Position numbers and translations under genes: made by a program
Virus record (IMG/VR): IMGVR_UViG_3300035698_009402
Span: 51,659-115,658 of that record
Length of the DNA stretch: 64,000 nucleotides
Strand: one strand, 5' to 3'
Source of the DNA: a virus
Lineage: Duplodnaviria; Heunggongvirae; Uroviricota; Caudoviricetes
Notes under the pieces: generated by a model
Told to the model about the DNA's origin: nothing
What the model saw: only the letters and a program-made list of their open reading frames with translations
Database searches by the model: none
Part shown: one piece after another, positions 21,221 through 44,273 of the stretch
Layout: every line of letters starts with the position of its first letter
Numbering within the stretch: position 1 is the stretch's first letter

Positions 21221-21297
21221 GGACGAGTAGCCCTCTGGTGAAGGCAGCGGTCTTTTAAACCGACATAGGATGGGTTCGATTCCCTCCTCGTCTACCA
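21221..21297 (+). tRNA. tRNA, anticodon loop CUUUUAA -> UUU (Lys); T-stem has only 3 clean pairs
   Basis: 7-bp acceptor GGACGAG/CUCGUCU, GGTTCGATTCC T-loop, encoded CCA; hand-folded. Confidence 0.5.
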
Positions 21298-21309
21298 GTT
21301 TTGGGTATC

Positions 21310-21384
21310 GAATGTATAGTAGAATGGTTCTGCAACGGGCTTTTAATCCGCTCATAAGGGGTTCGATTCCTAGCGTGCCTGCCA
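21310..21384 (+). tRNA. tRNA-like element or pseudo-tRNA (Lys-UUU-like anticodon arm; acceptor stem does not pair)
   Basis: D-arm GTAG/CTGC, anticodon arm with CUUUUAA loop, GGTTCGATTCC T-loop and ...GCCA end, but 5'/3' acceptor strands are not complementary. Confidence 0.25.
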
Positions 21385-21453
21385 ATTTAAAGAGAGTTTA
21401 TAATGAAAAAATATGAAAGTCAGTTTTTCTAAGTATTAACTTAGGAGGACTAA

Positions 21454-21705
21454 ATGAGTAGAACATATAGAAGAAAAAACTTAAAAAAACTTAGACATTT
21501 TTATTGGGGTGATAGTAGCGATCCTACTTTTCACAGAGATAGTCATCATTACTCTAATAGATGGGCTAAAGCAGTAAAAAATCATTCTAATAGTGAAGAA
21601 AGAGCGTATATCAGAGCTAGTTTACATAAAGCTAAAAATGATTACAAATACGATATTCAAAATCGTAAAAAATATTTAAAAAGGTTAATTTGGTGTTATG
21701 ACTAG
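21454..21705 (+). CDS. hypothetical basic protein
   Basis: 83 aa, K/R/H-rich; GGAGGA RBS. Confidence 0.4.
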   Translation: MSRTYRRKNLKKLRHFYWGDSSDPTFHRDSHHYSNRWAKAVKNHSNSEERAYIRASLHKAKNDYKYDIQNRKKYLKRLIWCYD

Positions 21706-22459
21706 TATTCAAATCTATAGTGACTTACATTGCGAATTTGGTTATAAAGTTAAGCCCGAAGACTGTGAGGCAGATATTGTTATCTGTGCTGGAGACTTTA
21801 GTAATAACTTAGATCATATTAAGTTAATGAGAGAGTGGCATCCTAGTAGCAAGATTATTTATATTGCGGGAAATCATGAGTTTTATGGTACTGAACCTCT
21901 TGGAGATAGATACAATAATATCTGTCTAGAATGTATAAATCAAGATATATTTTTCCTACAAAATAACCAAGTTATAATAGATAATATACTATTTGTTGGA
22001 GCTACTTTGTGGACAGATTTTAATTTATACAATAATTATAAATTTGATAGATTAGGGTTTGCTTTATTAAACGATAGCAGACTTATTAGGTACTCCAAAA
22101 ATAGTATCATGAGAGATACTCATTGTACACAAGAATTTAATCATTCTATAAAATGTTTGGAGTATTCTTTAAAACAAAAAAAGTATGATAAAAAAGTAGT
22201 TATTTCACATCACGGTGTTAGTCTACAAAGCGTTCATCCAAAGTATACTCAAAAAGATGTAAACAGTTGTTTTAGTAGCGATTTAACTTCCTTTATTGAA
22301 AAACATCAACCTGATTTATGGGTTCATGGACATACTCATGATAGTCATGATTACCTTATTGGAAACACTAGAGTCTTAACTAATCCTAAAGGTTATGAAC
22401 GTTATACTGGAGAAATTGAGAATAAAGAGTGGAATAGGGGTTTAGTTGTTGAACTATAA
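21698..22459 (+). CDS. calcineurin-like metallophosphoesterase
   Basis: VICAGDFSNN, IAGNHE, HGHTHDSHD metallophosphoesterase motifs. Confidence 0.6.
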   Translation: MTSIQIYSDLHCEFGYKVKPEDCEADIVICAGDFSNNLDHIKLMREWHPSSKIIYIAGNHEFYGTEPLGDRYNNICLECINQDIFFLQNNQVIIDNILFVGATLWTDFNLYNNYKFDRLGFALLNDSRLIRYSKNSIMRDTHCTQEFNHSIKCLEYSLKQKKYDKKVVISHHGVSLQSVHPKYTQKDVNSCFSSDLTSFIEKHQPDLWVHGHTHDSHDYLIGNTRVLTNPKGYERYTGEIENKEWNRGLVVEL

Positions 22460-22710
22460 AATAGAGTTTAGTGAAATAACAAAAGTTTATAGTTTATATA
22501 CAACAACTAGCCCTTATTTTTGTTTACAAAGTAATTGTATAATTGATTTATTAGAAAAAAAAGATAGATTAATAGAATTTTATGAAAGAAGTTTACTTAA
22601 ATGACTCACTGGATTATAGAACAAAATGTGTTTTCAGAAGATTGTTTTAATAGTTCTGGATTTTATAAATGTAATGCACCAGATATTATGAGTTCAATTA
22701 ATAAACTAAT

Positions 22711-22801
22711 GGAGAGTAAATCAGTCAGGGACTGAGCCTGTTTGCTAAACAGTTCGTGCTACTAATACTAGCATGGGGATCGGGACCTCTGCTCTCCGCC
22801 A
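22711..22801 (+). tRNA. tRNA-Ser (anticodon GCU), type II, unusual T-loop AUCGGGA
   Basis: Acceptor GGAGAGU/GCUCUCC + G + CCA; anticodon stem CUGU/ACAG with loop UUGCUAA; long variable arm; 91 nt. Confidence 0.55.
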
Positions 22802-22806
22802 TTTTA

Positions 22807-22897
22807 GGAAAGGCAAGCCAATAGGCGGTGGCCGCTGTTTTGAAAACAGTTAGGACTAATCAGTGTCGTGAGAGTTCGATTCTCTCTCTTTCCGCCA
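22807..22897 (+). tRNA. tRNA-Ser (anticodon UGA), type II
   Basis: Acceptor GGAAAGG/UCUUUCC + G + CCA; anticodon stem GCUGU/ACAGU, loop UUUGAAA; T-arm GAGAG-UUCGAUU-CUCUC; 91 nt. Confidence 0.65.
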
Positions 22898-22914
22898 TTT
22901 TAAAGGATAATAAA

Positions 22915-23112
22915 ATGCATAGACAAACTTTTACAGGATATATGGACTTAACTACTTGGGACTGGGATATAGAAAGTGGTGCTGGAGGCGATATATATCC
23001 CAGTGAATCCAGTTGTCGTGAAAACAATAAAACACATATAGAAGAATGCGGCATAGTACAAGTTACTGTAACAATAAATAAAATAATTAAAGAAGCACAA
23101 GATGAATATTAA
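22915..23112 (+). CDS. hypothetical protein
   Basis: Start trimmed to the ATG at 22915 because the longer ORF overlaps tRNA-Ser (22807-22897). Confidence 0.3.
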   Translation: MHRQTFTGYMDLTTWDWDIESGAGGDIYPSESSCRENNKTHIEECGIVQVTVTINKIIKEAQDEY

Positions 23113-23865: not shown

Positions 23866-23940
23866 GGTGGAGTAGCTCAATGGTAGAGCGATAGGTTGAA
23901 GCCCTGTGCGTAGTAAGTTCGATTCTTACCTCCATCACCA
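23866..23940 (+). tRNA. tRNA-Phe (anticodon GAA)
   Basis: GGTGGAGTAGCTCAATGGTAGAGC 5' end; anticodon loop UUGAAGC; T-arm GTAAG-TTCGATT-CTTAC; encoded CCA. Confidence 0.8.
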
Positions 23941-25624: not shown

Positions 25625-25698
25625 AGCTTGGTGGCGGAGTGGTAACGCGGCGATCTGCAAAATCGTTTACAGGAGTTCGAATCTCCTCCAAGCTTCCA
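25625..25698 (+). tRNA. tRNA-Cys (anticodon GCA)
   Basis: Acceptor AGCTTGG/CCAAGCT; anticodon loop CUGCAAA; T-arm AGGAG-TTCGAAT-CTCCT; CCA; promoter at 25575. Confidence 0.8.
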
Positions 25699-26027: not shown

Positions 26028-26189
26028 ATGTCAGATATAAAATTCAATACAATAGAAGAAATAATCAAACATATTTCCTCAAAACATGCTGAACGTACTT
26101 GGGTAGGAATAGGCTACAGTAAACAAGATTTAATAAACGATTTAGCAAACATTAATAAATTACGTGGCAATGATGTAACGGTAGCATAG
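26028..26189 (+). CDS. small hypothetical protein (53 aa); 3' end overlaps tRNA-His
   Basis: ATG overlapping the upstream stop (TGAATG); overlaps tRNA 26164-26236 by 26 nt, so doubtful. Confidence 0.25.
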   Translation: MSDIKFNTIEEIIKHISSKHAERTWVGIGYSKQDLINDLANINKLRGNDVTVA

Positions 26190-26236
26190 TAGACTGTGAA
26201 TCTACTCGTCAGGGTTCAAATCCCGTTGTCACCCCA
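26164..26236 (+). tRNA. tRNA-His (anticodon GUG), no encoded G-1, C73
   Basis: Acceptor GTGGCAA/TTGTCAC + C + CCA; perfect anticodon arm GTAGA-CTGTGAA-TCTAC; short T-stem. Confidence 0.55.
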
Positions 26237-26241: not shown

Positions 26242-26325
26242 CCAAGAGTTGAACAGGTGGTGAGTTCCAGTGTCTGTAAAACACTCGCTTAAGCTAAGTA
26301 GGTTCGATTCCTACCTCTTGGACCA
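26242..26325 (+). tRNA. tRNA-Tyr (anticodon GUA), type II
   Basis: Acceptor CCAAGAG/CTCTTGG + A + CCA; anticodon arm AGTGT-CTGTAAA-ACACT; long variable arm; T-arm GTAGG-TTCGATT-CCTAC. Confidence 0.7.
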
Positions 26326-26347: not shown

Positions 26348-26503
26348 ATGTACTTAGTATGGGCTTACTATGATTATTATCCTTCGGGACCTGATGATTT
26401 GCAAAAGATATGCTACTCTAGAGAGCAGGCAGAACGATATATAGAAGAAAACCTTTCTGATACTCATTATGATAACGTGGAGATAACAGAATATCATGAC
26501 TGA
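26348..26503 (+). CDS. small hypothetical protein (51 aa)
   Basis: ATG at 26348; its stop overlaps the start of the exonuclease gene. Confidence 0.3.
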   Translation: MYLVWAYYDYYPSGPDDLQKICYSREQAERYIEENLSDTHYDNVEITEYHD

Positions 26504-26993
26504 TATAGTAGTGGACGTAGAGGCGGACGGACCTTGTCCGGGTCTTTATAGCATGATTTCTTTTGGGGCTGTAGAACTTTCTACTATGAAGGGGTTTTAT
26601 GTAGAGTTAAAGCCTATCAGCGATCATTTTGATTCTGGAGCATTAAACGCTTGTAATTTTACTAGAGAACAGACTATGGAGTTTCCTAGTGCTGAACTAG
26701 CTATGACACAATTTGATAAGTGGTTGAAACAATTTAATAAGCCGTTAACTTTTTGGAGTGATAATAACGGTTTTGATTGGCAATTTATTAATTACTATTT
26801 TCATCTATGCAATAGTAATAATCCTTTTGGATTTAGTTCTAGACGTATTGGAGATTATTATTGTGGACAAGAAAATAATGTTAGAGCTAATAGACATTGG
26901 AAGAAACTTAGAAAGACTAAGCACACCCATAATGCTTTAGATGATGCTATGGGAAATGCAGAAGCTCTTAAGGTAATACTTAATAGGAAGTAA
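26496..26993 (+). CDS. DEDDh-family 3'-5' exonuclease (DnaQ/RNase T-like)
   Basis: VDVEADGP (Exo I DxE), C-terminal HNALDDAMGNAEA (Exo III H-x4-D). Confidence 0.6.
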   Translation: MTDIVVDVEADGPCPGLYSMISFGAVELSTMKGFYVELKPISDHFDSGALNACNFTREQTMEFPSAELAMTQFDKWLKQFNKPLTFWSDNNGFDWQFINYYFHLCNSNNPFGFSSRRIGDYYCGQENNVRANRHWKKLRKTKHTHNALDDAMGNAEALKVILNRK

Positions 26994-27133: not shown

Positions 27134-27206
27134 AGCTGAGAAGGTCGGTACCTAGTTAGTTTTCATAAGACTGATGTAGTGAGTTCAACTCTCACCTTAG
27201 CTACCA
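27134..27206 (+). tRNA. tRNA-Met (anticodon CAU; initiator, elongator or Ile2 not distinguished)
   Basis: Acceptor AGCTGAG/CTTAGCT + A + CCA; anticodon arm TAGTT-TTCATAA-GACTG; T-arm GTGAG-TTCAACT-CTCAC. Confidence 0.7.
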
Positions 27207-27225: not shown

Positions 27226-27645
27226 ATGAAAGATAAAAAATTTTATAAAATATGCGCTTCTTTTTATATAAATATATTAATAGCTAAACTTAAGGAAGAA
27301 AATTTATCTCCATATGATAGTAAAAATCTTCCGGAAGATTTTTACGATCTTATGTGTATGGTATATTATGAGGCAGTAAACAAAGAAGCTGCTAAACTTA
27401 TACTAGAAGAAATGTGGAATACTAATAAAATTCCCGGGGTTATAGCCTATGAAAAAGATTTATATGTAGAGTTTATTGATACTTCTAATTTTATTACTGA
27501 ATTAATTAATAACAATCTTGATAAAATTGAGAAATATAATAACGGTAATGAAAAAATTCTAAAGTGGTTTCTAGGTCAAGTTATGCAAGAGTTTAGAGGT
27601 AAAATAAATCCCAAAGAAATAGAATTACAAACAAAAAACTACTAG
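27226..27645 (+). CDS. GatB/YqeY-domain protein
   Basis: C-terminal ILKWFLGQVMQEFRGKINPKEI resembles the YqeY/GatB C-terminal motif (gfLmGqvMk.tkGkAnp). Confidence 0.45.
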   Translation: MKDKKFYKICASFYINILIAKLKEENLSPYDSKNLPEDFYDLMCMVYYEAVNKEAAKLILEEMWNTNKIPGVIAYEKDLYVEFIDTSNFITELINNNLDKIEKYNNGNEKILKWFLGQVMQEFRGKINPKEIELQTKNY

Positions 27646-27657: not shown

Positions 27658-27837
27658 ATGATTAAGAGTTTGCAGTTAACATGTTTAGATGAAGGTAGTG
27701 ATACTTTTAGCATTTATAAAACCTATACGGATATTGTATTAGCAATAAGAATGGACGATAAGGTATCTGCAATTTTCTTAGATAGAGAAGATTTACCAAA
27801 ATTAATTGATTTTTTAGTAGAATTGCGTGATGAATAA
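27658..27837 (+). CDS. small hypothetical protein (59 aa)
   Basis: ATG 27658 preceded by an AGGA RBS. Confidence 0.3.
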   Translation: MIKSLQLTCLDEGSDTFSIYKTYTDIVLAIRMDDKVSAIFLDREDLPKLIDFLVELRDE

Positions 27838-28042: not shown

Positions 28043-28735
28043 ATGAATAAAGAACAATTAGAAAAAGATATCCTAGACGAACAACTATTAGAATACTTAC
28101 CAAATAAAAACGTAGTTTTTGCGGTTTTACACGGTAGCAGGGCTTACGGATTAAGTACTAAAGATAGTGATTATGATGTTAAATTCGTCTGGATTGAAGA
28201 TTATGAAACCTATACAGGAATATCAGAAGTAAAAAATACTGGATATAGCGAACAAAAGGATAATGTAGACGTAAGCGGTTGGGAATTGAAGCATTTTCTT
28301 AATTTAGTTAGAAAAAATAATATGACTACTATGGAAACTTTATTTTCTCCTATACTAAGTGTTGATATAGATAACTATTTAACCTTAATTTTAGAAGTTG
28401 CAGCAAACTTTAATAGAAAAAGTTTAGGTATTCAGTATCATAAAGCTAGTAAGAGTTATTACTACAAATACTTAGAAACAAGTAAACTTAAATATTTAAT
28501 TAACTCTTTTAGATGTTTTAATAACGCAGTATATATAAGAAAAAATTGTAAAATACCACCTATTACTGCTAAAGAATGTTATGATAATATCCTTCTTAAG
28601 GGGGTACATTATGATATAACTAACTTTAATACTTTATTAGATGATTTTAATTATGAGTGGTACTCTACAGATCATCAAATAGATACTAAAGTATTAAACG
28701 ATATATTTAGGGAAACAGCTCTTAGCAGTAAATAA
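28043..28735 (+). CDS. Pol-beta-superfamily nucleotidyltransferase-like protein
   Basis: VVFAVLHGSRAYGLSTKDSDYDVKFV = hG[GS]x9-13Dh[DE]h NTase signature. Confidence 0.5.
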   Translation: MNKEQLEKDILDEQLLEYLPNKNVVFAVLHGSRAYGLSTKDSDYDVKFVWIEDYETYTGISEVKNTGYSEQKDNVDVSGWELKHFLNLVRKNNMTTMETLFSPILSVDIDNYLTLILEVAANFNRKSLGIQYHKASKSYYYKYLETSKLKYLINSFRCFNNAVYIRKNCKIPPITAKECYDNILLKGVHYDITNFNTLLDDFNYEWYSTDHQIDTKVLNDIFRETALSSK

Positions 28736-28778: not shown

Positions 28779-28863
28779 TGGGAAGTGGCGGAACTGGTAG
28801 ACGCGCTAGACTGTTAATCTTGTGCCGTAAGGCTTGGGGGTTCGAGACCCTCCTTCTCAGCCA
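28779..28863 (+). tRNA. type-II (Leu-like body) tRNA with Asn-type anticodon loop CUGUUAA (GUU), anticodon assignment uncertain
   Basis: TGGGAAGTGGCGGAACTGGTAGACGCG closely resembles a bacterial tRNA-Leu 5' half; anticodon stem CTAGA/TCTTG (one mismatch), loop CTGTTAA; 12-nt variable hairpin GCC-GTAA-GGC; T-arm GGGGG-TTCGAGA-CCCTC; G + CCA. Confidence 0.5.
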
Positions 28864-28871
28864 AAAATTAT

Positions 28872-28958
28872 TCCTGGGTGGCAGAGCGGTAATGTTCCTC
28901 ACTGTTAATGAGTGGACTTCGTAAGAAGCGTAGGTTCGATCCCTACCCCTAGGAGCCA
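28872..28958 (+). tRNA. type-II tRNA, anticodon loop CUGUUAA (GUU) or alternative fold UAA (Leu); irregular acceptor/T junction
   Basis: Acceptor TCCTGGG/CCTAGGA + G + CCA with one extra nt after the T-stem; variable hairpin CTTC-GTAA-GAAG; T-arm GTAGG-TTCGATC-CCTAC. Confidence 0.4.
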
Positions 28959-28966: not shown

Positions 28967-29041
28967 AGTAGAGAATCCGATTGGCGAGGAACGCGCCTGA
29001 TTAGCGTGTGGTAGAGGGTTCGATTCCCTCCTCTACGACCA
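28967..29041 (+). tRNA. tRNA, anticodon loop CUGAUUA -> GAU (Ile?), pyrimidine at 37
   Basis: Acceptor AGTAGAG/CTCTACG (A1-G72 mismatch) + A + CCA; anticodon stem CGCGC/GCGTG; T-arm GAGGG-TTCGATT-CCCTC. Confidence 0.5.
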
Positions 29042-29061: not shown

Positions 29062-29475
29062 ATGACTCGTATTAATATAGTTGATCCTATAGAATTAATG
29101 GATCAACATTTAGTAGCTGAATATAGAGAAATCTTGATGATAGGATCTTCATTACAACGGTCTTTAAGAGGTAAGAGTTGGAATAAGAATAAGATACCTG
29201 ACTCATTCAGATTAAATAAAGGTCATGTATTATTTTTCTACGATAAAGGTCTATATTTACAAAAACGGTATGAACAATTAAGAAATGAAATGATTAGGAG
29301 AGGAATGTCTCCTAATCCCGATAGAAAATTCAATGTAGAGTGTTTTCCTAATTTCATATATAGAAATGATTGGACTCCTTCCGACAAAGATAGAAACATT
29401 ATTAGAGAACGATTATCTTTTAGGATATCAGAAAAACCTAATTGGTATAGATATGAGGGTAAATTAGTTGAGTAG
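29062..29475 (+). CDS. denV: pyrimidine-dimer DNA glycosylase (T4 endonuclease V family)
   Basis: MTRINIVDPIELMDQHLVAEYREI closely matches T4 EndoV [24 protein letters not shown]; start trimmed to ATG 29062 to clear the tRNA at 28967-29041. Confidence 0.7.
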   Translation: MTRINIVDPIELMDQHLVAEYREILMIGSSLQRSLRGKSWNKNKIPDSFRLNKGHVLFFYDKGLYLQKRYEQLRNEMIRRGMSPNPDRKFNVECFPNFIYRNDWTPSDKDRNIIRERLSFRISEKPNWYRYEGKLVE

Positions 29476-29540
29476 CTCAATGATAGAGCAGGGTCCTGAT
29501 AAGACCAAGACTTAAGGTTCGATTCCTTTTTTAGCTACCA
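29466..29540 (+). tRNA. tRNA-Ile (anticodon GAU)
   Basis: TAGCTCAATGATAGAGC D-arm; anticodon arm GGGTC-CTGATAA-GACCA; T-loop TTCGATT; A + CCA; 5' end abuts the denV stop. Confidence 0.6.
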
Positions 29541-29719: not shown

Positions 29720-29862
29720 TAACGTGGAATATAATATAGACAAAGGTATAATTATAGAACAGTTAACTCAGGTTATAGAGTCTATGAGTGGTAAAGATTT
29801 AATAAAACTATATAACGAGCATTTTGATACAAATCATTATGCAGATGAATACGGATATATTT

Positions 29863-30336
29863 ATGAAAAACGATAATATTATATTTTTAGACATGGATGG
29901 AGTTTTAGCTAGTGCTAGAATCTTTCATGCAGCTAATGATTCGGGTATGTGGAGCAGTATTGATATTCATGCTGCTAAATTTTTGGACCGAATTTGTTAT
30001 AAGTGGCCAGCTAAAATTGTTATTAGTAGTACTTGGAGATATTTAACAGATCAAAAAAACTGGCCTTATATTTTTCAAGGAACTGATTTGTATAGTCATT
30101 TTCATAATCAGTGGAAAACTCCTAGAACTGACAAAGGATTTAGAGGCGATGATATTAATAAATGGATGGATTCAGTAAATTTCAAAGGAAACTATCTAAT
30201 TTTTGACGACAGTAGCGATTTTTACGACGATCAAAAGAAAAATATGATTCACACTGATGTAGATGATGGTATGCTTACTAAACATTATAGACAGACAATT
30301 GACTTATTATATGGAAGATATGGTGTTAAATTATGA
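29863..30336 (+). CDS. HAD-superfamily hydrolase-like protein
   Basis: Motif I IIFLDMDGVLAS (DxDG[VT]L) near the N-terminus. Confidence 0.4.
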   Translation: MKNDNIIFLDMDGVLASARIFHAANDSGMWSSIDIHAAKFLDRICYKWPAKIVISSTWRYLTDQKNWPYIFQGTDLYSHFHNQWKTPRTDKGFRGDDINKWMDSVNFKGNYLIFDDSSDFYDDQKKNMIHTDVDDGMLTKHYRQTIDLLYGRYGVKL

Positions 30337-30746
30337 GACGAGTAACTTTAAAAGAAAAAATAATGAACGCTACGATTGAAGAATGTAATTTATCTATAGA
30401 TGAAGGGTTTTTAACTTTATGGTTGACTCTAAAATTAGAAGATGGTTTTTCAAAAGCTTTTGGCGGATATAATTTAGGAAAAACATGTTCTTTCTTCACA
30501 GACGAAGTAAAACTTTTTAATAAACAAGATTTTTTATCAGATAATAAAGATAATTGTAATTTGGCTAATTGGTTTATTAACAGTTGTATGTATACTGTAG
30601 GAGTACATAATTTAAAAGATTTTAAAGGTAAAAATATTAGAATCAAGGTAGAAAATCCAGGATTTGGACGAACTATTGTAAGAATTGGTCATATTATCGA
30701 AGATAAATGGTTTTTCCCTAAAGAAGATAGAGAGTTATTACAATGA
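30333..30746 (+). CDS. hypothetical protein
   Basis: 137 aa ORF; ATGA overlap. Confidence 0.4.
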   Translation: MRRVTLKEKIMNATIEECNLSIDEGFLTLWLTLKLEDGFSKAFGGYNLGKTCSFFTDEVKLFNKQDFLSDNKDNCNLANWFINSCMYTVGVHNLKDFKGKNIRIKVENPGFGRTIVRIGHIIEDKWFFPKEDRELLQ

Positions 30747-33199: not shown

Positions 33200-33216
33200 A
33201 AATTAAAAATTTACAT

Positions 33217-33245: not shown

Positions 33246-33251
33246 AATGAA

Positions 33252-34098: not shown

Positions 34099-34126
34099 AA
34101 TTTATGTTATACTGTGATAACTCGTT

Positions 34127-34711: not shown

Positions 34712-34788
34712 CTGGGTATAGCTCAATCTGGCAGAGTGCCGCACTAGGACTGCGGAAGTTGTAGGTTCGAATCCTACTACTCAGACCA
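34712..34788 (+). tRNA. tRNA-Pro-like (C1-G72, A73) with anticodon AGG (A34, unusual for bacteria/phage)
   Basis: Acceptor CTGGGTA/TACTCAG + A + CCA; D-arm GCTC/GAGT; clean anticodon arm CCGCA-CTAGGAC-TGCGG; T-arm GTAGG-TTCGAAT-CCTAC. Confidence 0.55.
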
Positions 34789-34800: not shown

Positions 34801-35277
34801 ATGATGAATATAATTACCGCACCTGAATCCATTTATAATACCCTCGGTCCTAAGCTATTCTTAGCAGGTAGCATCGAAATGGATAAAGCAGAGAAATGGC
34901 AAAAGAAAGTAATCGAACATATCTCTACTTATACAGGTACTGTATATAATCCTAGACGTGAAAAATGGGATAGTACTTGGGAGCAGAAATTAGGCGATAA
35001 TGAATTTACTAAACAGGTAAATTGGGAATTAGATGCTCTTGCAAATAGTGACGTAATTTTTATTTATTTTGACCCTAACACTATCAGCCCTATTACTTTG
35101 ATGGAATTTGGTATTCATATTGAATATAAATATACAATAGTATGTTGTCCAGATGGATATTTTAGAAAAGGTAATGTAGAAGTAGTTTGTAACAGATTTG
35201 GATTACCTGTATACAATACTTTGGAAGATGCTCTAACGAAGTTAGATGCAGTATTAGAACAGTGGCAACGAGACTGA
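34801..35277 (+). CDS. nucleoside 2-deoxyribosyltransferase-like protein
   Basis: PF05014-like pattern: LAGSIEMD ... DPNTISPITLMEFGIHI (conserved Glu in the xxExGxx motif). Confidence 0.45.
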   Translation: MMNIITAPESIYNTLGPKLFLAGSIEMDKAEKWQKKVIEHISTYTGTVYNPRREKWDSTWEQKLGDNEFTKQVNWELDALANSDVIFIYFDPNTISPITLMEFGIHIEYKYTIVCCPDGYFRKGNVEVVCNRFGLPVYNTLEDALTKLDAVLEQWQRD

Positions 35278-35335
35278 GACATCACGGGAGGCTTGGACCC
35301 CTCGGAGCTGGGTTTGATTCCCAGGTCACTGACCA
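35260..35335 (+). tRNA. tRNA-Pro (anticodon UGG)
   Basis: Acceptor CAGTGGC/GTCACTG (C1-G72) + A + CCA; anticodon loop CTTGGAC; T-arm CTGGG-TTTGATT-CCCAG; 5' end overlaps the stop of the preceding CDS. Confidence 0.65.
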
Positions 35336-35431: not shown

Positions 35432-35896
35432 ATGATAAAATTGATACTTATAGTAATAATTTTTTTCATTAGTACAACTGCTTTAGCTAAGGTATATGAT
35501 TGTAATTTAGCGAAAACAGATCAAAAATGTTTAGCATGTAATATATATCACGAGGCTAGGGGAGAATCTGTACACGGTAAATTAGCTGTAGCCTTAGTAA
35601 CTAGAAATAGAGTTATTAGCGATAAGTACCCAGAAAACTATTGTAAGGTAGTATATCAAAAAAAGCAATTTAGTTGGACACATGATGGAGCATCAGACAA
35701 AACTTACGAAAAAGATGTTTGGCTAAATGCACAAAATATTGCTAAAATAGTTTTACAAGATCAAGAAATGGAATTAATAGGATTACCAGAAAATACTCTA
35801 TGGTATCATACAGATACCGTAAACCCTTATTGGGCTAATAAGTTTAAAAGAGTATTACAAATAGGAAGGCATATTTTTTATGTTGACAATAGATGA
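35432..35896 (+). CDS. SleB-like cell-wall hydrolase (Hydrolase_2 family)
   Basis: Signal peptide; CLACNIYHEARGESVHGKLAVALVTRNRV and YCKVVYQKKQFSW match the SleB domain. Confidence 0.6.
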   Translation: MIKLILIVIIFFISTTALAKVYDCNLAKTDQKCLACNIYHEARGESVHGKLAVALVTRNRVISDKYPENYCKVVYQKKQFSWTHDGASDKTYEKDVWLNAQNIAKIVLQDQEMELIGLPENTLWYHTDTVNPYWANKFKRVLQIGRHIFYVDNR

Positions 35897-36314
35897 TACA
35901 ATAGGGTTAGTTACTTTAGCTCATGACGGGCAGACTTATGACGGTAAAGGGTACGAATATCACTTAATTAAAGTGTATGAAAAATGTAAAGAATTATTCT
36001 TCGTAGATGATGAGTTAGCTAAAGCTTGTCTATTACACGATATTTTAGAAGATACATACTACAAAAGAGTAGATTTGTATAATCTTGGGTTTACTAACAG
36101 AACACTAGATATTATTGATCTAGTAACTAAAGATAAAGATTTAACTTATTACGATAACATTACTAGAATTATCCTTGCAGATAATAAAGAAGCAGCTATT
36201 GTAAAATATTGTGATAATTTAGTAAACTTAGATCATTCAGAAAAAATGAATCAAAAACTTAAAGATAGGTGGACTATTTCGGCTATTAGATTAAAGGATC
36301 ACTATAAATTATGA
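35880..36314 (+). CDS. HD-domain phosphohydrolase (RelA/SpoT-like (p)ppGpp hydrolase-type HD domain)
   Basis: LAHDGQTYDGKGYEYHLIKV ... LLHDILEDT = H..HD...D HD-domain metal-binding pattern. Confidence 0.5.
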   Translation: MLTIDDTIGLVTLAHDGQTYDGKGYEYHLIKVYEKCKELFFVDDELAKACLLHDILEDTYYKRVDLYNLGFTNRTLDIIDLVTKDKDLTYYDNITRIILADNKEAAIVKYCDNLVNLDHSEKMNQKLKDRWTISAIRLKDHYKL

Positions 36315-36524: not shown

Positions 36525-36602
36525 GCGTGAGTGGGCAAATTGGTAAAGTCACTGGTTTTAGACGCCAGGGTTCTGAGGGTTCGAGTCCCTCCTTACGCAC
36601 CA
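36525..36602 (+). tRNA. tRNA with anticodon UAG (Leu-decoding) but type-I body (6-nt variable loop)
   Basis: Acceptor GCGTGAG/CTTACGC + A + CCA; anticodon arm CTGGT-TTTAGAC-GCCAG; T-arm GAGGG-TTCGAGT-CCCTC. Confidence 0.55.
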
Positions 36603-36697: not shown

Positions 36698-36783
36698 CCT
36701 AGTGTGGCGGAACGGCATACGCAGCAGACTTAAAATCTGTGGTCAGAGATGGCATAAGAGTTCGATTCTCTTCACTAGGACCA
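36698..36783 (+). tRNA. tRNA-Leu (anticodon UAA), type II
   Basis: Acceptor CCTAGTG/CACTAGG + A + CCA; anticodon arm GCAGA-CTTAAAA-TCTGT; 15-nt variable arm; T-arm AAGAG-TTCGATT-CTCTT; 86 nt. Confidence 0.7.
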
Positions 36784-37109: not shown

Positions 37110-37184
37110 GTCTTTGTAGCATTATGGTAATGCGTCCGCCTCTAAAACGGAAGAAAACGGGTTCAATTCCTGTCAAAGACACCA
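37110..37184 (+). tRNA. tRNA with anticodon loop CUCUAAA -> CUA (candidate amber suppressor); alternative fold has a 9-nt loop
   Basis: Acceptor GTCTTTG/CAAAGAC + A + CCA; D-arm GCAT/ATGC; anticodon stem TCCG/CGGA with a C-A closing mismatch; T-arm ACGGG-TTCAATT-CCTGT. Confidence 0.5.
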
Positions 37185-37721: not shown

Positions 37722-37798
37722 GCCCAAGTAGGCCAATTGGCAGAGTCGCTAGATTCAAAACCTAGATGTTGCGGGTTCGAGTCCCGCTTTGGGTACCA
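37722..37798 (+). tRNA. tRNA (Trp-like D-arm); anticodon ambiguous: CAA with an A-C closing mismatch, or UCA-containing 9-nt loop
   Basis: Acceptor GCCCAAG/TTTGGGT + A + CCA; D-loop CAATTGGCAGAG like tRNA-Trp; anticodon stem CTAG/CTAG with loop ATTCAAAAC; T-arm GCGGG-TTCGAGT-CCCGC. Confidence 0.5.
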
Positions 37799-37949: not shown

Positions 37950-38025
37950 GCTCGCCTAGTGAAACTGTATATAACATGAGTCTACGAAACTCAAGATAGG
38001 GGTTCGATTCCTCTGGCGAGTACCA
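37950..38025 (+). tRNA. tRNA-Arg (anticodon ACG)
   Basis: Acceptor GCTCGCC/GGCGAGT + A + CCA; perfect anticodon arm TGAGT-CTACGAA-ACTCA; T-loop TTCGATT. Confidence 0.7.
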
Positions 38026-38684: not shown

Positions 38685-38760
38685 GCCAAATTAGTGTTAA
38701 CGGTTAGCACAACTGTTTTGTAATCAGTAAGTGGGGGTTCGACTCCTCTATTCGGCACCA
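38685..38760 (+). tRNA. tRNA-Thr (anticodon UGU)
   Basis: Acceptor GCCAAAT/ATTCGGC + A + CCA; D-arm GTGT/GCAC; anticodon loop TTTGTAA; T-arm GGGGG-TTCGACT-CCTCT. Confidence 0.65.
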
Positions 38761-39492: not shown

Positions 39493-39586
39493 GCTCCTAT
39501 AGTTTAAAAGTAAAACAGCAAGCTTATACCTTGTATTAGCGGTAGATGACCGCATGATGTTGGTTCAAATCCAGCTGGGAGTACCA
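39493..39586 (+). tRNA. unusually long (94 nt) tRNA; anticodon arm GCAAG-CUUAUAC-CUUGU gives UAU (Ile/AUA?) with a 24-nt variable region containing hairpin GCGG-UAGAUGA-CCGC
   Basis: Acceptor GCTCCTA/TGGGAGT + A + CCA; D-arm GTTT-AAAAGTA-AAAC; T-arm GTTGG-TTCAAAT-CCAGC. Confidence 0.4.
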
Positions 39587-39593: not shown

Positions 39594-39671
39594 GGTCTAG
39601 TATCATAATTGGAGTAATGAATTTCCCTGTCACGGAAAGGTATGTGGGTTCAAGTCCCATCTAGATCGCCA
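39594..39671 (+). tRNA. tRNA-Asp (anticodon GUC)
   Basis: Acceptor GGTCTAG/CTAGATC + G + CCA; anticodon arm TTTCC-CTGTCAC-GGAAA; T-arm GTGGG-TTCAAGT-CCCAT. Confidence 0.75.
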
Positions 39672-39904: not shown

Positions 39905-39981
39905 CGGTTTCGTAGCATAACTGGATAATGCCTCTGGCTTCTAACCAGACGATTGAGGGTTCGAATCCTTCCGAAACCACC
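39905..39981 (+). tRNA. tRNA-Arg (anticodon UCU)
   Basis: Acceptor GGTTTCG/CGAAACC + A + CCA; anticodon arm TCTGG-CTTCTAA-CCAGA; T-arm GAGGG-TTCGAAT-CCTTC. Confidence 0.75.
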
Positions 39982-40235
39982 AATATAGGAAAAAAGAAAA
40001 TGGAATTATTAGCTATAATTGCGGCAGCCGTATTTGTCGTTTCTATCACCTCTTTTATTTCTTATAATATATAATGATAAACTGTTTCTTATATAAAACA
40101 GTAGCAAAACAACATTATTTAATAGCAAAGTTTGATAAAATAACTCCTAATCATTACCATAAGATTTTATTTGTAGTGAAAAAAGAAAACAAATACGGAA
40201 AAGATTGTTATTATTTAACAAATAACAAATTATAA

Positions 40236-40309
40236 GTTGGTCTAGTGTAATGGCAACACGACTGCTTCCAAACCAGTAGATGTGGGTTCGATTCCTACGA
40301 CCTTCGCCA
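40236..40309 (+). tRNA. tRNA-Trp (anticodon CCA)
   Basis: Anticodon arm ACTGC-TTCCAAA-CCAGT like E. coli tRNA-Trp; T-arm GTGGG-TTCGATT-CCTAC; G + CCA; acceptor has two U-U mismatches. Confidence 0.6.
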
Positions 40310-40517: not shown

Positions 40518-41177
40518 ATGACATATAGATTATTAGATTTATTTTCAGGACCAGGAGGTTCGGCAGTAGGATATAATAATGCAGGATTTTCTGAAATAGT
40601 GGGAGTAGACACAGAAAATATATCTAAATATCCTTTTGAGTTTATTAATAAGGACGTATTTTGCTTAGATATAGATTTTATGAAATCTTTCGATTTTATA
40701 CACGCTAGCCCACCTTGCCAAGCATATAGTAGCGGAAGTATATCGGCTAGAAAAAAGGGAAAAGAATATCCAGATTTAGTAGCGCCTACCAGAGAATTAT
40801 TAAACAGTTTAAATATTCCTTATATTATAGAAAATGTACCTAATGCTCCTTTAATTAACCCCACGGTATTGTGTGGAACTCAATTTGATTTACGAGTTTT
40901 TAGGCATAGATTGTTTGAAAGTAACATAAGAATTTATGGCAAGGGGAAATGCAGTCATAAAGGGCTAAAAGTTAGTTACAGGGAAAACGATGGCGGTAAT
41001 ATGTTTGGAGTTGCTGGCCATCAGTACGGTAATAAAGAACAATGGAATCAAGCTATGGGCGGACAATTATCTTTTATTGCTAGTAAAAGATTAATGGCTC
41101 AGGTAATACCTCCTGCATATACCGAATTTTTAGGTATGCAGGTTATTAAGTATTTGGAGAGTAAACCTGTAGGGTGA
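40518..41177 (+). CDS. DNA (cytosine-5)-methyltransferase (compact)
   Basis: Motif I LDLFSGPGG, motif IV PPCQAYS (PCQ catalytic Cys), motif VI ENV (YIIENVPN); 3' end overlaps tRNA-Ser(GGA) by ~22 nt. Confidence 0.6.
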   Translation: MTYRLLDLFSGPGGSAVGYNNAGFSEIVGVDTENISKYPFEFINKDVFCLDIDFMKSFDFIHASPPCQAYSSGSISARKKGKEYPDLVAPTRELLNSLNIPYIIENVPNAPLINPTVLCGTQFDLRVFRHRLFESNIRIYGKGKCSHKGLKVSYRENDGGNMFGVAGHQYGNKEQWNQAMGGQLSFIASKRLMAQVIPPAYTEFLGMQVIKYLESKPVG

Positions 41178-41242
41178 CAGGCGCGTCTTGGAAAGGCGTA
41201 GGGCGTTAAGTCGCTGGGGATCGAGACCTCTGCTCTCCGCCA
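41156..41242 (+). tRNA. tRNA-Ser (anticodon GGA), type II, unusual T-loop AUCGAGA
   Basis: Same acceptor (GGAGAGU/GCUCUCC) and T-arm as tRNA-Ser at 22711; anticodon arm GCGTC-TTGGAAA-GGCGT; 5' end overlaps the methyltransferase stop. Confidence 0.6.
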
Positions 41243-41247: not shown

Positions 41248-41322
41248 GCTTTTGTAGTATAATGGATATTACACGGTCTTGGTAAGACTGAAATCAGAGT
41301 TCGATTCTCTGCTGGAGCACCA
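41248..41322 (+). tRNA. tRNA-Thr (anticodon GGU)
   Basis: Anticodon arm CGGTC-TTGGTAA-GACTG; T-arm CAGAG-TTCGATT-CTCTG; acceptor GCTTTTG/CTGGAGC + A + CCA. Confidence 0.65.
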
Positions 41323-41777: not shown

Positions 41778-41853
41778 GGGGGCAGGGCATGTGTACCCGG
41801 AGGTTCCTTGCAAGAACCTAGCCTGGAGGGTTAGAGTCCCTCTGTCTCCACCA
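41778..41853 (+). tRNA. tRNA-Ala (anticodon UGC) with G3-U70
   Basis: Acceptor GGGGGCA/TGTCTCC (G3-U70 identity pair) + A + CCA; anticodon arm GGTTC-CTTGCAA-GAACC; T-arm GAGGG-TTAGAGT-CCCTC. Confidence 0.7.
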
Positions 41854-41859
41854 TATTAA

Positions 41860-41934
41860 TGAAGGATCTTCTAACGGTAGGAAACCTGGCCTTGAACCAG
41901 GATAATGTGGGTTCGAATCCTACTCCTTCATCCA
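41860..41934 (+). tRNA. tRNA-Gln (anticodon UUG), U1-A72
   Basis: Acceptor TGAAGGA/TCCTTCA + T + CCA; anticodon arm CCTGG-CCTTGAA-CCAGG; T-arm GTGGG-TTCGAAT-CCTAC. Confidence 0.6.
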
Positions 41935-41940
41935 ATTAGC

Positions 41941-42014
41941 TGCTCTGTAGTGTAATGGTAGCACGCAATACTCTGAATGTTGTAATTCTGGTTCGATCCC
42001 AGAGAGAGCATCCA
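41941..42014 (+). tRNA. tRNA-Gln (anticodon CUG), U1
   Basis: Acceptor TGCTCTG/GAGAGCA + T + CCA; D-arm GTGT/GCAC; anticodon arm CAATA-CTCTGAA-TGTTG; T-arm TCTGG-TTCGATC-CCAGA. Confidence 0.65.
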
Positions 42015-42782: not shown

Positions 42783-42783
42783 T

Positions 42784-42857
42784 GCGGGTATAGCGTAAAG
42801 ATAACGTGATTGGTTGCCAGCCAGTAGTTCTGAGTTTGAGTCTCAGTGTCCGCGCCA
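42784..42857 (+). tRNA. tRNA-Gly (anticodon GCC); its 3' 18 nt are part of the 109-bp direct repeat
   Basis: Acceptor GCGGGTA/TGTCCGC + G + CCA; anticodon arm ATTGG-TTGCCAG-CCAGT; T-arm CTGAG-TTTGAGT-CTCAG. Confidence 0.75.
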
Positions 42858-42948
42858 TTTGAGTAAAAGTAAAAAAAAATAAAGATTGCTATAAAGGGTT
42901 AATTATAGTATTATATCTTTAGAAATTAAAAAAAGGAAGAAATTTTTG
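42840..42948 (+). repeat. 109-bp direct repeat, copy 1 (includes the 3' 18 nt of tRNA-Gly-GCC)
   Basis: GTCTCAGTGTCCGCGCCATTTGAGTAAAAGTAAAAAAAAATAAAGATTGCTATAAAGGGTTAATTATAGTATTATATCTTTAGAAATTAAAAAAAGGAAGAAATTTTTG; identical to 43542-43650 by eye. Confidence 0.7.
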
Positions 42949-43019
42949 GGACCTATATACGTAGCTAGCCATGTAGCAATTTGTGCTTAGGGCGCGTATA
43001 TAGTGGGTAGGAGGCTAAA

Positions 43020-43490
43020 ATGTCAGCGCAAACGGTTGCCGACGATATTCTGAAAATCGCAAAGCGGCGTGGGATGAAATTGACACCCATGCAACTGATG
43101 AAGCTCGTCTACATATCTTACGGTTGGTATCTCGCGATGCACAACGCAAAGCTGTTCAATGATCGCATTGAAGCTTGGAAGTATGGCCCCGTGATTCCAA
43201 ATCTTTATCAAGCAACTAAACGGTTTGGAAAAAATGAAATCCCCTCGGAGATGGTCGCGGATAGCCCTATCAACAACCAGAGCATGGAGCCATTTTACGA
43301 AAGTATCGTTGAGAATTACGGGAAATATTCTGGGATTGCCCTTTCAAACCTGACACACAGGCAAGGGACACCTTGGCATAAAGTATTCCAGCCCCCCGTG
43401 ATGGGTATTGAGATTCCTGACCCATTAATCCTTGAACATTATCAGCAGGGCCTCGATGCAAGACAAGCCACCACCACCGCCACCATCTGA
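43020..43490 (+). CDS. Panacea-domain (DUF4065, GepA/SocA-like) protein in a GC-rich insertion
   Basis: DILKIAKRRGMKLTPMQLMKLVYISYGWYLAMHNAKLFNDRIEAWKYGPVIPNLY matches DUF4065 (KLQKLLYyaqgw...LF.e.ieAWk.GPVvp.vY); GC ~50% vs ~30% around it. Confidence 0.5.
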   Translation: MSAQTVADDILKIAKRRGMKLTPMQLMKLVYISYGWYLAMHNAKLFNDRIEAWKYGPVIPNLYQATKRFGKNEIPSEMVADSPINNQSMEPFYESIVENYGKYSGIALSNLTHRQGTPWHKVFQPPVMGIEIPDPLILEHYQQGLDARQATTTATI

Positions 43491-43541
43491 ATGGGCCGAG
43501 GGCGAAGAGTGGAAACAGGATGCCGAAGCCAAGGCTGAAAG

Positions 43542-43650
43542 GTCTCAGTGTCCGCGCCATTTGAGTAAAAGTAAAAAAAAATAAAGATTGCTATAAAGGG
43601 TTAATTATAGTATTATATCTTTAGAAATTAAAAAAAGGAAGAAATTTTTG
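43542..43650 (+). repeat. 109-bp direct repeat, copy 2 (carries a duplicated tRNA-Gly 3' fragment)
   Basis: Perfect copy of 42840-42948 located 702 bp downstream. Confidence 0.7.
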
Positions 43651-43700
43651 TGGATTGAATATTGGTCTTATGTAGGCTTTATGTATTTAGTAAGTTTTGA

Positions 43701-43775
43701 ACAACTAATCGCGGGTATGGTATAAAGGTAGTGCCTCAGCCTTCCAAGCTGATGAAGACCGGTTCGAGTCCGGCT
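43701..43775 (+). tRNA. tRNA-Gly (anticodon UCC)
   Basis: Acceptor GCGGGTA/TACCCGC + T + CCA; anticodon arm TCAGC-CTTCCAA-GCTGA; T-loop TTCGAGT. Confidence 0.7.
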
Positions 43776-43804
43776 ACCCGCTCCAATTAATAAAGGGTTA
43801 AAAT

Positions 43805-44209
43805 ATGCTAACAAGGTTAGATTTTTTAGAAATGGAAGAAGTAAACGTTTCTAAACTAAGTAGTTATGAAGGATATTGGTATTTAGCAAGTCCTTTTGCA
43901 GGGTTAGATAGAAAACAAGCATTAAATCTAGTAGCAGAAGCTACTTTTCATCTATTAAAAGAGAGAATTTTTGTTTGGTCGCCAATTTTGCATACTTCAT
44001 CAATTGACGATAATTATAGTGAAAGTAATGAAGAATTAGGCTGGAATCATTCAGATTTTTTAAAGTATGATGCTAGTTTGATGAAACATGCGCAAGGATG
44101 TATATTAATTAATAACGAACAATCATTAAATTCTAAAGGTATGTTTAGTGAATATTGTTATTTTAAAAATACTATGAAACCTTGCTTTAAGTATACAATG
44201 CTCGCTTAG
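43805..44209 (+). CDS. hypothetical protein
   Basis: 134 aa; its TAG stop overlaps the first nt of tRNA-Val. Confidence 0.45.
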   Translation: MLTRLDFLEMEEVNVSKLSSYEGYWYLASPFAGLDRKQALNLVAEATFHLLKERIFVWSPILHTSSIDDNYSESNEELGWNHSDFLKYDASLMKHAQGCILINNEQSLNSKGMFSEYCYFKNTMKPCFKYTMLA

Positions 44210-44273
44210 TTTAATGGCAGAACGACGTCTTTACACGGCGTATACGATGGTTCGATTCCTTCAGTGAGTACCA
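44200..44273 (+). tRNA. tRNA-Val (anticodon UAC)
   Basis: Acceptor GCTCGCT/AGTGAGT + A + CCA; anticodon arm ACGTC-TTTACAC-GGCGT; T-arm GATGG-TTCGATT-CCTTC. Confidence 0.7.

Follow-up and report, generated by a model that had tools for sequence, protein, structure and literature searches.

The 64-kb stretch of Caudoviricetes DNA analysed here (positions 51,659 to 115,658 of IMG/VR record IMGVR_UViG_3300035698_009402; hereafter the window, 31% GC) carries a large array of transfer RNA (tRNA) genes in a 23-kb block at 21221-44273, interleaved with small open reading frames (ORFs) and with genes for RNA repair, a transfer-messenger RNA (tmRNA) and a captured antitoxin. We conclude that the block at 20.6-44.3 kb is probably a translation-takeover and RNA-repair island, which would supply tRNAs for the AT-rich codons of the phage and would repair or protect tRNAs. 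This conclusion is carried by the genes themselves, their structures, their catalytic motifs, their arrangement and their match to phage codons; from these we infer co-transcription, processing, aminoacylation, actual repair and the identity of the host. Features below lie on the + strand unless stated otherwise.

At default settings, ARAGORN called 30 tRNAs across the window. All of them lie on the + strand, with 29 in 21221-44273 and one at 55096-55171, the latter being the outlying tRNA-Gln reported in the initial annotation of this DNA. Rfam at its gathering threshold gave 27 tRNA matches in the window, including one (28967-29038) that is absent from the ARAGORN default list. Lowering the ARAGORN threshold added a tRNA-Met(CAU) at 27134-27206 and a weak Lys-like gene at 21312-21384. 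A custom scan, which looked for an acceptor stem of 7 bp, a T arm with a 5-bp stem, a discriminator and CCA, returned 37 strong matches on the + strand vs 4 on the - strand, and contributed a tRNA-Ser(GCU) at 22711-22801 and a Pro(UGG)-like gene at 35260-35335, both missed by ARAGORN and Rfam. Together, the three methods give 34 tRNA-like genes in the block, ~30 of them solid, plus one fragment (34020-34099), essentially the count of at least 34 plus-strand tRNAs that had been proposed; 30 of the 34 pass the Rfam gathering score or the ARAGORN default (the exceptions start at 21312, 22711, 27134 and 35260). An encoded CCA ends all 34 array tRNAs and the tRNA-Gln at 55096, so the earlier statement that most encode their CCA was right about the CCA and too cautious about the number. 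All 20 amino acids have a tRNA in the array. The isoacceptors listed previously (Ser x3, Gln x3, Gly x2, Thr x2, Arg x2, Pro x2) are correct, and Leu x3, Ile x3, Asn x2 and an amber suppressor (CUA) complete them. Mean tRNA GC is 50% vs 31% for the window, and 34 tRNAs in 23 kb of 31% GC DNA are far beyond chance.

The array matches the codons that the phage uses most. Counted over 9,892 codons from 52 ORFs, usage is led by AAA (62 per 1000), AAT (54), GAA (52), TTA (50), GAT (50) and ATT (43), followed by TAT (39), GTA (36), TTT (35), ACT (34), ATA (31) and AGA (26). Each top codon has a cognate or wobble-reading phage tRNA, as expected from the AT-rich codon supply suggested earlier, with the Lys, Asn and Ile(GAU) genes present in duplicate. 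The sole sense codon possibly lacking a phage reader is CGG (4 uses), and the phage set contains no initiator tRNA. As a small stand-in for the host we used one locus of a Rhodobacterales metagenome-assembled genome (MAG; 1,009 codons), and the comparison revealed a clear mismatch: per 1000 codons this locus uses TTA 5.9, ATA 5.9, AGA 3.0, AAA 14.9, ACT 4.0 and GTA 7.9 times, 4-9 times more rarely than the phage. The elongator set would thus fit A/T-ending phage codons that a GC-rich host decodes poorly, thereby making phage translation largely independent of the host tRNA pool.

The tRNAs are dispersed and alternate with ~45 small ORFs, to which they are tightly fitted. In 17 cases a Shine-Dalgarno sequence and start codon lie 12-23 nt past the CCA, 8 ORF stop codons fall 0-7 nt ahead of tRNA 5' ends, and 4 Pfam-matched ORFs extend 10-22 nt into the next tRNA (29466, 35260, 41156, 44200). 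These four encode a DenV-like pyrimidine-dimer DNA glycosylase (29062-29475; Pfam Pyr_excise 57 bits), whose 3' end runs 10 nt into its neighbour, a nucleoside deoxyribosyltransferase-like protein, a C5 cytosine DNA methylase-like fragment and a product with a weak Pfam match (43805-44209). The methylase-like ORF (40518-41177, 219 aa) covers Pfam profile positions 1-113 of 324 and enters tRNA-Ser(GGA) by 22 nt, and may therefore be truncated. This layout resembles tRNA punctuation. Cleavage by RNase P would leave upstream mRNAs without a stop codon or without a 3' untranslated region, which is a possible reason for the phage to encode a tmRNA. A phage-specific near-consensus promoter, TTGCTT-N17-TATAAT, occurs in 6 copies on the + strand; one lies directly upstream of the array (20594-20622), and the motif is also found at 33217, 51390, 52258 and 52369. 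A generic sigma-70 promoter scan was uninformative in this AT-rich DNA (102 found vs 104.5 expected). We propose that co-directional transcripts from few consensus promoters (20594, and 33217 for the tmRNA) would carry the small ORFs alternating with the 34 CCA-encoding tRNAs, from which host RNase P and 3' trimming would free a near-complete elongator set, possibly aided by a phage DEDD-type 3'-5' exoribonuclease (Rv2179c/RNase T-like; 26496-26993; Pfam 42.9 and 27.4 bits; DVEAD motif).

Inside the array lies a gene for an RtcB 3'-phosphate/5'-OH RNA ligase (30915-32135), which matches PF01139 with 424.4 bits over profile positions 1-426 of 426. When aligned to Pyrococcus horikoshii RtcB, residues D95, C98, N202, H203, H234, H329 and H404, a set comprising the metal-binding Asp/Cys/His residues and the guanylylated His, correspond to phage D72, C75, N169, H170, H187, H279 and H335. 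All catalytic residues are therefore kept, including the conserved His/Cys metal ligands on which the initial call depended, and the gene is predicted to encode an intact, full-length ligase. The genes from 29824 up to the tmRNA (29824-30336, 30333-30746, 30743-30913, 30915-32135, 32137-32799, 32796-33020, 33020-33199) overlap or abut and therefore resemble one operon. It opens with a standalone Swiss-Army-Knife (SAK) HAD phosphatase (29824-30336; PF18143 HAD_SAK_2, 65 bits, cutoff 27.5; FLDMDGVL motif). Next comes a protein whose predicted model is an OB fold (30333-30746), between the SAK-HAD and RtcB genes and overlapping the start and stop of its neighbours. The gene directly downstream of RtcB (32137-32799) encodes a lambda-type (NinI-like) PPP Ser/Thr phosphatase, with motifs GDLHG, GDLVDRG and GNHD; the lambda-like assignment made before is borne out by a full-length match to PDB 1g5b (131.6 bits) and by phrog_246 (218 bits). 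A further gene on this strand, for the RNA-ligase-associated Pol-beta nucleotidyltransferase RlaP (28043-28735; PF10127, 113 bits, cutoff 23; HGS...DYDV motif), ends 2.2 kb before the start of RtcB. Together, the SAK-HAD, the OB-fold protein, RtcB, the lambda-type phosphatase and nearby RlaP would reseal or rebuild tRNAs cut by ribotoxins.

Two identities considered for members of this operon were not borne out. A Pnkp-type RNA end-healing identity of the PPP phosphatase is not supported: it scored 28.8 bits against TIGR04075 (cutoff 750) and 26.7 bits against PDB 4j6o, and no kinase was found in the region. Archease was rejected for the OB-fold ORF: Pfam, NCBIfam and PDB gave no sequence match, and the predicted fold is OB. 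It belongs to an uncharacterised family with 463 representatives and no Pfam match, and a tblastn search of phages with the protein gave no match. The only near-identical sequence found for this phage is an ENA metagenome contig of 638 bp (ERZ27315400), which carries a 99%-identical copy of the OB-fold gene.

Other genes of the block point to toxin systems acting on translation. An HD-domain hydrolase related to RelA/SpoT hydrolases (35880-36314; TIGR00691 31 bits; phrog_990 96 bits) is a candidate small alarmone hydrolase, a class of enzymes that can also undo the pyrophosphorylation of tRNA CCA ends by toxSAS toxins. Near the right end of the array, a SocA/Panacea antitoxin-domain gene (43020-43490) sits in a cassette of 593 bp and 48% GC (42949-43541) between perfect 109-nt direct repeats (42840-42948 and 43542-43650), which start inside the 3' end of tRNA-Gly(GCC) (42784-42857; ARAGORN; Rfam 51.7 bits), the last 18 nt of this tRNA being the start of the repeat. 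The cassette is 73% identical in nucleotides and 80% in amino acids to a locus of the Rhodobacterales MAG, and 94% identical in amino acids, over the first 51 residues, to a Sulfitobacter MAG. In the Rhodobacterales MAG, a putative toxin of 116 aa, hydrophobic at its C-terminus, is encoded downstream by a gene overlapping that of the antitoxin; the phage retains only the ~25 first codons of this toxin gene, and the right cassette junction falls in a microhomology, GTCTCAGTG.CCG..CCA, common to the putative toxin gene and the tRNA. This is a recent capture, mediated by microhomology, in which the antitoxin came without its toxin. The SpoT-like HD hydrolase and the captured Panacea antitoxin would counter toxin systems other than those met by the repair genes.

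The tmRNA (33213-33606) is of the permuted two-piece (alpha) type. It had been proposed in the initial annotation and is supported by RF01849 (85.1 bits, gathering 50; match at 33213-33564) and RF04321 (74.3 bits, gathering 47). Its acceptor piece, ...GCGCCUCCACCA at 33318-33329, lies upstream of the coding piece, GGGGGCGAAAU from 33411, and its tag ORF reads ANDNTSYAMAA*, with an Ala-Ala-stop end. It has a promoter of its own at 33217-33245, and the preceding ORF stops 13 nt short of the tmRNA. This RNA would free stalled ribosomes, and SmpB, for which the scanned ORFs gave no match, is presumed to be supplied by the host. Rhodobacter and Mesorhizobium phages contain sequences that match a 35-nt stretch of the tmRNA at 94% identity and that may be ssrA-derived attachment sites.

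Two clues bear on the host, namely the alpha-type tmRNA with its 35-nt phage match and the captured Rhodobacterales-like antitoxin cassette. They point to a marine alphaproteobacterium as the most likely host, with Rhodobacterales as the best clue. The phage itself is probably large and virulent, and its lineage has no sequenced relatives: searched by megablast, 21-45 kb had no nucleotide match among the 50,697 phage records of INPHARED. For RtcB, no sequence searched among phages, IMG/VR or JGI metagenomes exceeded 55-58% identity, the maximum in RtcB-seeded scans of IMG/VR and JGI metagenomes being 57%, and an exact look-up of RtcB returned no record. The best RtcB matches come from jumbo or large phages that infect Caulobacter, Ralstonia, Pseudomonas and Brevundimonas.

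Several tRNAs of the array have unusual architectures. A long base-paired variable arm is present both in the two tRNA-Asn(GUU) genes (85 and 88 nt) and in tRNA-Ile(UAU) (94 nt). The first tRNA-Asn (28779-28863; ARAGORN; Rfam 46.8 bits) has U1-A72 and G73; the second (28871-28958; ARAGORN; Rfam 37.1 bits) has a slightly irregular acceptor/T junction and resembles a tRNA of Erythrobacter phage XM05. The long-arm type, which is the sole tRNA-Asn of both the window and the XM05 locus, recurs in phages of Alphaproteobacteria, namely the Caulobacter phages CcrColossus and CcrPW, where the 89-nt gene is annotated as tRNA-Asn, and XM05, as well as in five IMG/VR contigs of uncultured viruses. Across an alignment of 9 sequences, 93.7% of cells are paired and 19 of 25 pairs have changed on both sides; 0 of 500 shuffles came up to the alignment itself in paired fraction or covariation score, and pairing in slid controls fell to 37-51%. 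U1-A72, G73 and the anticodon loop CUGUUAA are invariant in this alignment. The long-arm tRNA-Ile(UAU) (39493-39586; ARAGORN; Rfam 55.7 bits; A73), supported by its fold and by phage homologues, has counterparts in Levilactobacillus phage ENFP1 and Acinetobacter phage qsb1, and its extra arm is a covarying stem with a largely conserved AGAUG/AGAUA loop. Introns were rejected as the source of the extra length, since the additional nucleotides are the covarying variable arm. A G3:U70 pair in the tRNA at 28779, considered as an alanine identity element, is not conserved in the long-arm Asn family and is probably incidental. We found no description of long-arm phage tRNA-Asn or tRNA-Ile families in the open-access literature.

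U1-A72 and G73 are acceptor-end hallmarks of bacterial tRNA-Asn, and the amidotransferase GatCAB recognises U1-A72. In the phage tRNAs the acceptor ends fit the anticodon (U1-A72 and G73 for Asn; A73 and C4-G69 for Ile) and the acceptor/T geometry is the normal 7/5, which makes normal identity the simplest reading. The same features have a second side, as G73 with a long arm is also a signature for SerRS, and A73 with a long arm is reminiscent of nev-tRNA(UAU), which in nematodes is charged with Leu (PMC3333845, PMC7609411). Nev-tRNAs (PMC3333845) and allo-tRNAs (PMC5389517, PMC7609411) likewise combine a long arm with a class I anticodon (GUU and UAU in the phage), and the UAU anticodon, favoured in both, is that of the phage long-arm tRNA-Ile; unlike them, the phage tRNAs keep the normal 7/5 geometry and the acceptor features of their anticodon's amino acid. 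The extra arm could thus cause mischarging with Ser or Leu, by analogy with nev- and allo-tRNAs. It could also confer orthogonality to host tRNA-targeting toxins, or alter which synthetase or amidotransferase acts on these tRNAs, U1-A72 and G73 fitting the AspRS/GatCAB route; a rare standalone GatB-tail/YqeY-domain protein (27226-27645; Pfam 86.6 bits; NCBIfam GatB C-terminus), already recognised in the initial annotation, is encoded 1.1 kb upstream of the long-arm tRNA-Asn. Normal identity is at least as likely as recoding. The wider proposal that the long-arm Asn and Ile tRNAs are phage-specific conserved families with a special role for the arm, together with a tRNA punctuation that needs the tmRNA, we consider doubtful. 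In any case, these class-II-like tRNA-Asn and tRNA-Ile families pose a clean tRNA-identity question.

Departures from the usual architecture are also seen in Leu, Pro and Ser tRNAs. The short variable loop of tRNA-Leu(UAG) (36525-36602; ARAGORN; Rfam 54.5 bits) and tRNA-Leu(CAA) (37722-37798; ARAGORN; Rfam 48.2 bits) is also found in tRNA-Leu of DSS3P8, a Vibrio phage and others. tRNA-Pro(AGG) (34712-34788; ARAGORN; Rfam 63.4 bits) carries A34, which is unusual in bacteria outside tRNA-Arg(ACG). Two tRNA-Ser genes have A and not U at T-loop position 54 (AUCGRGA; 22774-22801 and 41215-41242): the class II tRNA-Ser(GCU) (22711-22801; T loop AUCGGGA; acceptor 7/7 in the custom scan, supported by its fold), which ARAGORN and Rfam missed because of this substitution, and tRNA-Ser(GGA) (41156-41242; T loop AUCGAGA; ARAGORN). 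The two are 76% identical and are paralogues with this T loop in common.

Such architectures are central to a reading, the one emphasised in the initial annotation, in which counter-defence is the main driver and the tRNAs are nuclease-insensitive replacements for host tRNAs cut by anticodon nucleases or CCA toxins, the codon match being secondary; the long-arm Asn and Ile(UAU), the short-arm Leu, the A34 of tRNA-Pro and the Ser T loops would then be evasion devices. RNA-repair and antitoxin genes are indeed interleaved among the tRNAs, odd tRNA architectures are kept in unrelated phages, and phage T5 tRNAs evade host tRNA-targeting defences through anticodon-loop changes (PMC10264068). Evasion alone, however, would not need a near-complete set that tracks phage codon frequencies, and the anticodon loops of the long-arm tRNA-Asn are invariant and canonical (CUGUUAA). 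We therefore entertain this reading only tentatively, as possible and less than likely; codon supply and nuclease replacement are in any case not exclusive. More improbable is that the RtcB operon serves other RNAs, be it ribosomal RNA (as RtcB2-PrfH), phage transcripts or tmRNA/GOLLD maturation, with the phosphatase acting as a protein phosphatase that alters host signalling and the position simply that of an accessory region. It draws on the phosphatase being a full-length lambda homologue that reaches just 27-29 bits against the phosphatase module of Pnkp, on the rarity, among the IMG/VR RtcB loci scanned, of more than a few tRNAs close by, on the separation of rtcB from tRNAs in DSS3Φ8 and CcrRogue (PMC5648845), and on unrelated accessory genes in the region (DenV, nucleoside deoxyribosyltransferase, a cell-wall hydrolase, the methylase fragment). 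RlaP and SAK-HAD are nevertheless repair-specific families at most 3 kb from RtcB, the ORFs scanned against Pfam include no PrfH or SmpB, and a two-piece tmRNA requires no ligation. Non-adaptive accretion, whereby tRNAs were gained by illegitimate recombination and many are decaying with no coherent function, would account for the degenerate copies (21312, 35260, 28871), the fragment at 34020 and the recent microhomology-mediated capture visible at a tRNA 3' end. It is hard to reconcile with ~30 intact cloverleaves scoring 43-66 bits, almost no redundancy with 20 of 20 amino acids covered, a universally kept CCA and an Asn family that covaries across phages (19 of 25 double-change pairs, 0 of 500 shuffles), and we give it very little credence.

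The translation-takeover and RNA-repair reading thus remains the preferred one, and it faces difficulties of its own. RtcB joins a 3'-phosphate or 2',3'-cyclic phosphate end to a 5'-OH end, and a 3'-phosphatase would destroy this substrate. RlaP adds 1-2 nucleotides and leaves a 3'-OH, and a 3'-kinase or trimming step has been stated to be missing (PMC12776372). With RlaP making 3'-OH ends, and with HAD and PPP phosphatases that would strip 3'-phosphates and not provide them, the pathway is chemically incomplete as encoded. Polynucleotide kinase, RtcA, Archease, CCA-adding enzyme and SmpB were all absent among the scanned ORFs, and lambda-type phosphatases are generic among phages. Further points that weigh against our conclusion are that 4-5 of the 34 tRNA-like genes are degenerate, that the Rhodobacterales link is based on one captured cassette and the codon proxy on just 1,009 codons, and that for genome size and lifestyle the view is limited to 64 kb. 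The interpretation given in the initial annotation is supported in part. Its repair side gains from RlaP, the SAK-HAD, the DEDD exoribonuclease, the SpoT-like HD protein and the Panacea/SocA antitoxin in the block, all overlooked in that annotation, and host anticodon nucleases are a putative driver. The lambda phosphatase brings no evidenced RNA role, and ends made by RlaP are not sealable by RtcB (PMC12776372). The OB-fold protein and the operon phosphatases are candidates for the missing step between RlaP and RtcB, and the locus is well suited to asking how a 3'-OH maker and a 3'-phosphate user cooperate.

The other members of the array, in map order, begin with tRNA-Lys(UUU) (21221-21297; Rfam 39.7 bits), which like the following genes was called by ARAGORN unless noted. 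The weak tRNA-Lys(UUU)-like gene behind it (21312-21384) ends in CCA, was seen by lowered-threshold ARAGORN only, has a minimum free energy (MFE) structure that is not a cloverleaf, and is probably a pseudogene. Then come tRNA-Ser(UGA) (22807-22897), tRNA-Phe(GAA) (23866-23940; 61.4 bits), tRNA-Cys(GCA) (25625-25698; 65.2 bits), tRNA-His(GUG) (26164-26236; 47.2 bits) and the class II tRNA-Tyr(GUA) (26242-26325). The tRNA-Met(CAU) at 27134-27206, from lowered-threshold ARAGORN, is elongator-like, with A1-U72 and a clean cloverleaf MFE structure (z -2.0). Two tRNA-Ile(GAU) genes follow the long-arm tRNA-Asn pair, at 28967-29041 (42.4 bits; ARAGORN at low threshold) and 29466-29540 (51.4 bits). 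Downstream of the tmRNA lie tRNA-Glu(UUC) (33833-33910; 44.3 bits) and the fragment at 34020-34099, made of a T arm and ACCA with a trailer identical to that of tRNA-Glu. The tRNA-Pro(UGG)-like gene at 35260-35335, from the custom scan, has a degenerate D arm and perfect acceptor and T stems. The series continues with the class II tRNA-Leu(UAA) (36698-36783; 54.3 bits), tRNA-Arg(ACG) (37950-38025; 49.2 bits), tRNA-Thr(UGU) (38685-38760; 52.8 bits), tRNA-Asp(GUC) (39594-39671; 56.1 bits), tRNA-Arg(UCU) (39906-39982; 66.2 bits), tRNA-Trp(CCA) (40236-40309; 49.4 bits), tRNA-Thr(GGU) (41248-41322; 53.9 bits) and tRNA-Ala(UGC), with G3:U70 (41778-41853). It closes with tRNA-Gln(UUG) (41860-41934; 55.3 bits), tRNA-Gln(CUG) (41941-42014; 43.2 bits), tRNA-Gly(UCC) (43711-43785; 53.0 bits) and tRNA-Val(UAC) (44200-44273; 57.6 bits).

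The amber suppressor tRNA (CUA; 37110-37184; ARAGORN; Rfam 61.4 bits) is weakly like phage tRNA-Lys. Among 79 ORFs of the window, 49 stop at TAA, 20 at TGA and 10 at TAG. Three TAG-joined ORF pairs were found in the window, all marginal, and none splits a recognisable gene, the late genes lying outside the window. TAG reassignment was therefore rejected for this window: TAG is a normal stop in 10 of 79 ORFs and no gene is interrupted by it, leaving the high-scoring tRNA(CUA) without an explanation inside the window. The GatB/YqeY ORF at 27226-27645 stops at TAG, and its frame stays open for 64 codons more, through ORF 27658-27837.

Among the remaining features, a GOLLD RNA (55023-55490; RF02032, 169.7 bits, gathering 150, model positions 1-416) holds the tRNA-Gln(UUG) at 55096-55171 in its variable linker, 11 kb downstream of the main array and after a 2-kb ORF-free region. 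GOLLD occurs near phage tRNA islands, at times with a linker tRNA (RF02032; Kretsch et al. 2025, PMC12286853), as is the case here; at 468 nt this copy is short, lengths elsewhere often being >800 nt (PMC12286853). GOLLD with a nested tRNA beside the array offers a natural system for GOLLD function. The ORF-free region (52250-54370, ~2.1 kb without a + strand ORF >60 aa, with a similar stretch at 54620-55020) has a GC of 0.37-0.40 vs 0.31 for the window, and begins directly past a pair of near-consensus promoters (52258-52286, 52369-52397). Pieces resembling tRNA lie within it, namely a T arm at ~52634-52655 and a 28.2-bit match at 53572-53636 ending GCGGCCA. The region may hold one or more large non-coding RNAs upstream of GOLLD; at 52.4-54.4 kb no Rfam family and no blastn match in phages were found, and the folding z-score was only -1.6. 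A second metallophosphoesterase is encoded within the array (21698-22459; Pfam Metallophos 44 bits; phrog_1649 153 bits). The ribosomal protein bS21 homologue noted previously (5226-5474, - strand) is backed by phrog_21469 (E 8e-6), and its minus-strand block also has a nucleotide-sugar epimerase (3386-4399). Upstream of the array, 14988-19493 is an NAD+ salvage/synthesis cluster with NadE (glutamine-dependent NAD synthetase, 222 bits) and nicotinate phosphoribosyltransferase-like and isochorismatase/nicotinamidase-like proteins. NAD+ salvage genes fit known phage counters to NAD+-depleting defences.

The closest parallels in organisation are large siphoviruses of Alphaproteobacteria. Sphingobium phage Lacusarx, the phiCbK-like phages/Colossusvirus of Caulobacter and Roseobacter phage DSS3Φ8 likewise cluster 23-28 tRNAs in one region (PMC5648845), and that of Lacusarx, with 24 tRNAs, a tmRNA and rtcB, shares the latter two and other translation genes with this phage (PMC5648845). 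RtcB of phiCbK-like phages is 55-58% identical to the one described here, CcrColossus and CcrPW have the same long-arm tRNA-Asn, and DSS3P8 has a similar short-arm tRNA-Leu and a weak match to the GOLLD region. In contrast to these parallels, there is no nucleotide similarity to these siphoviruses, and GC here is 31%. The 34 tRNAs serve 20 amino acids vs 13-18 in the Lacusarx/phiCbK-like/DSS3Φ8 group, and are spread among ORFs over 23 kb vs packed in ~4 kb. RlaP, SAK-HAD, the SpoT-like HD protein, the Panacea antitoxin, the YqeY domain and the amber suppressor set this phage apart from that group, and tadA and sigA were not found here.

In gene content, the island comes close to the kit described for jumbo phages, in which tRNAs together with RtcB, RlaP, standalone SAK-HAD and calcineurin-like and HD phosphatases counter host attack on translation (Iyer et al. 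2021, PMC7824862). All of these components, with calcineurin-like and HD phosphoesterases, are likewise present here; differences from that kit are that the window showed no sign of an ATP-grasp ligase, a polynucleotide kinase, a 2H phosphoesterase, a CCA-adding enzyme or PTH2, and that an OB-fold protein lies within the operon. The logic is that of T4 Pnkp/Rnl1, which repair PrrC-cleaved tRNA-Lys, a phage enzyme resealing a tRNA cut by the host; unlike in T4, RtcB seals 3'-phosphate or 2',3'-cyclic phosphate and 5'-OH ends directly, and kinase and ATP-grasp ligase are absent here. The provisioning and repair interpretation is thus already published for the tRNA/RtcB/RlaP kits of jumbo phages (PMC7824862), and the island is an unusually complete and unusually dispersed example of a known module, not a new system. 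With elongators for 20 amino acids, a tmRNA and bS21, interleaved with a repair and anti-toxin kit, it ranks among the more complete phage decoding sets, and this compact locus is suited to asking which of the two, supplying codons or evading toxins, is the role of phage tRNA arrays.

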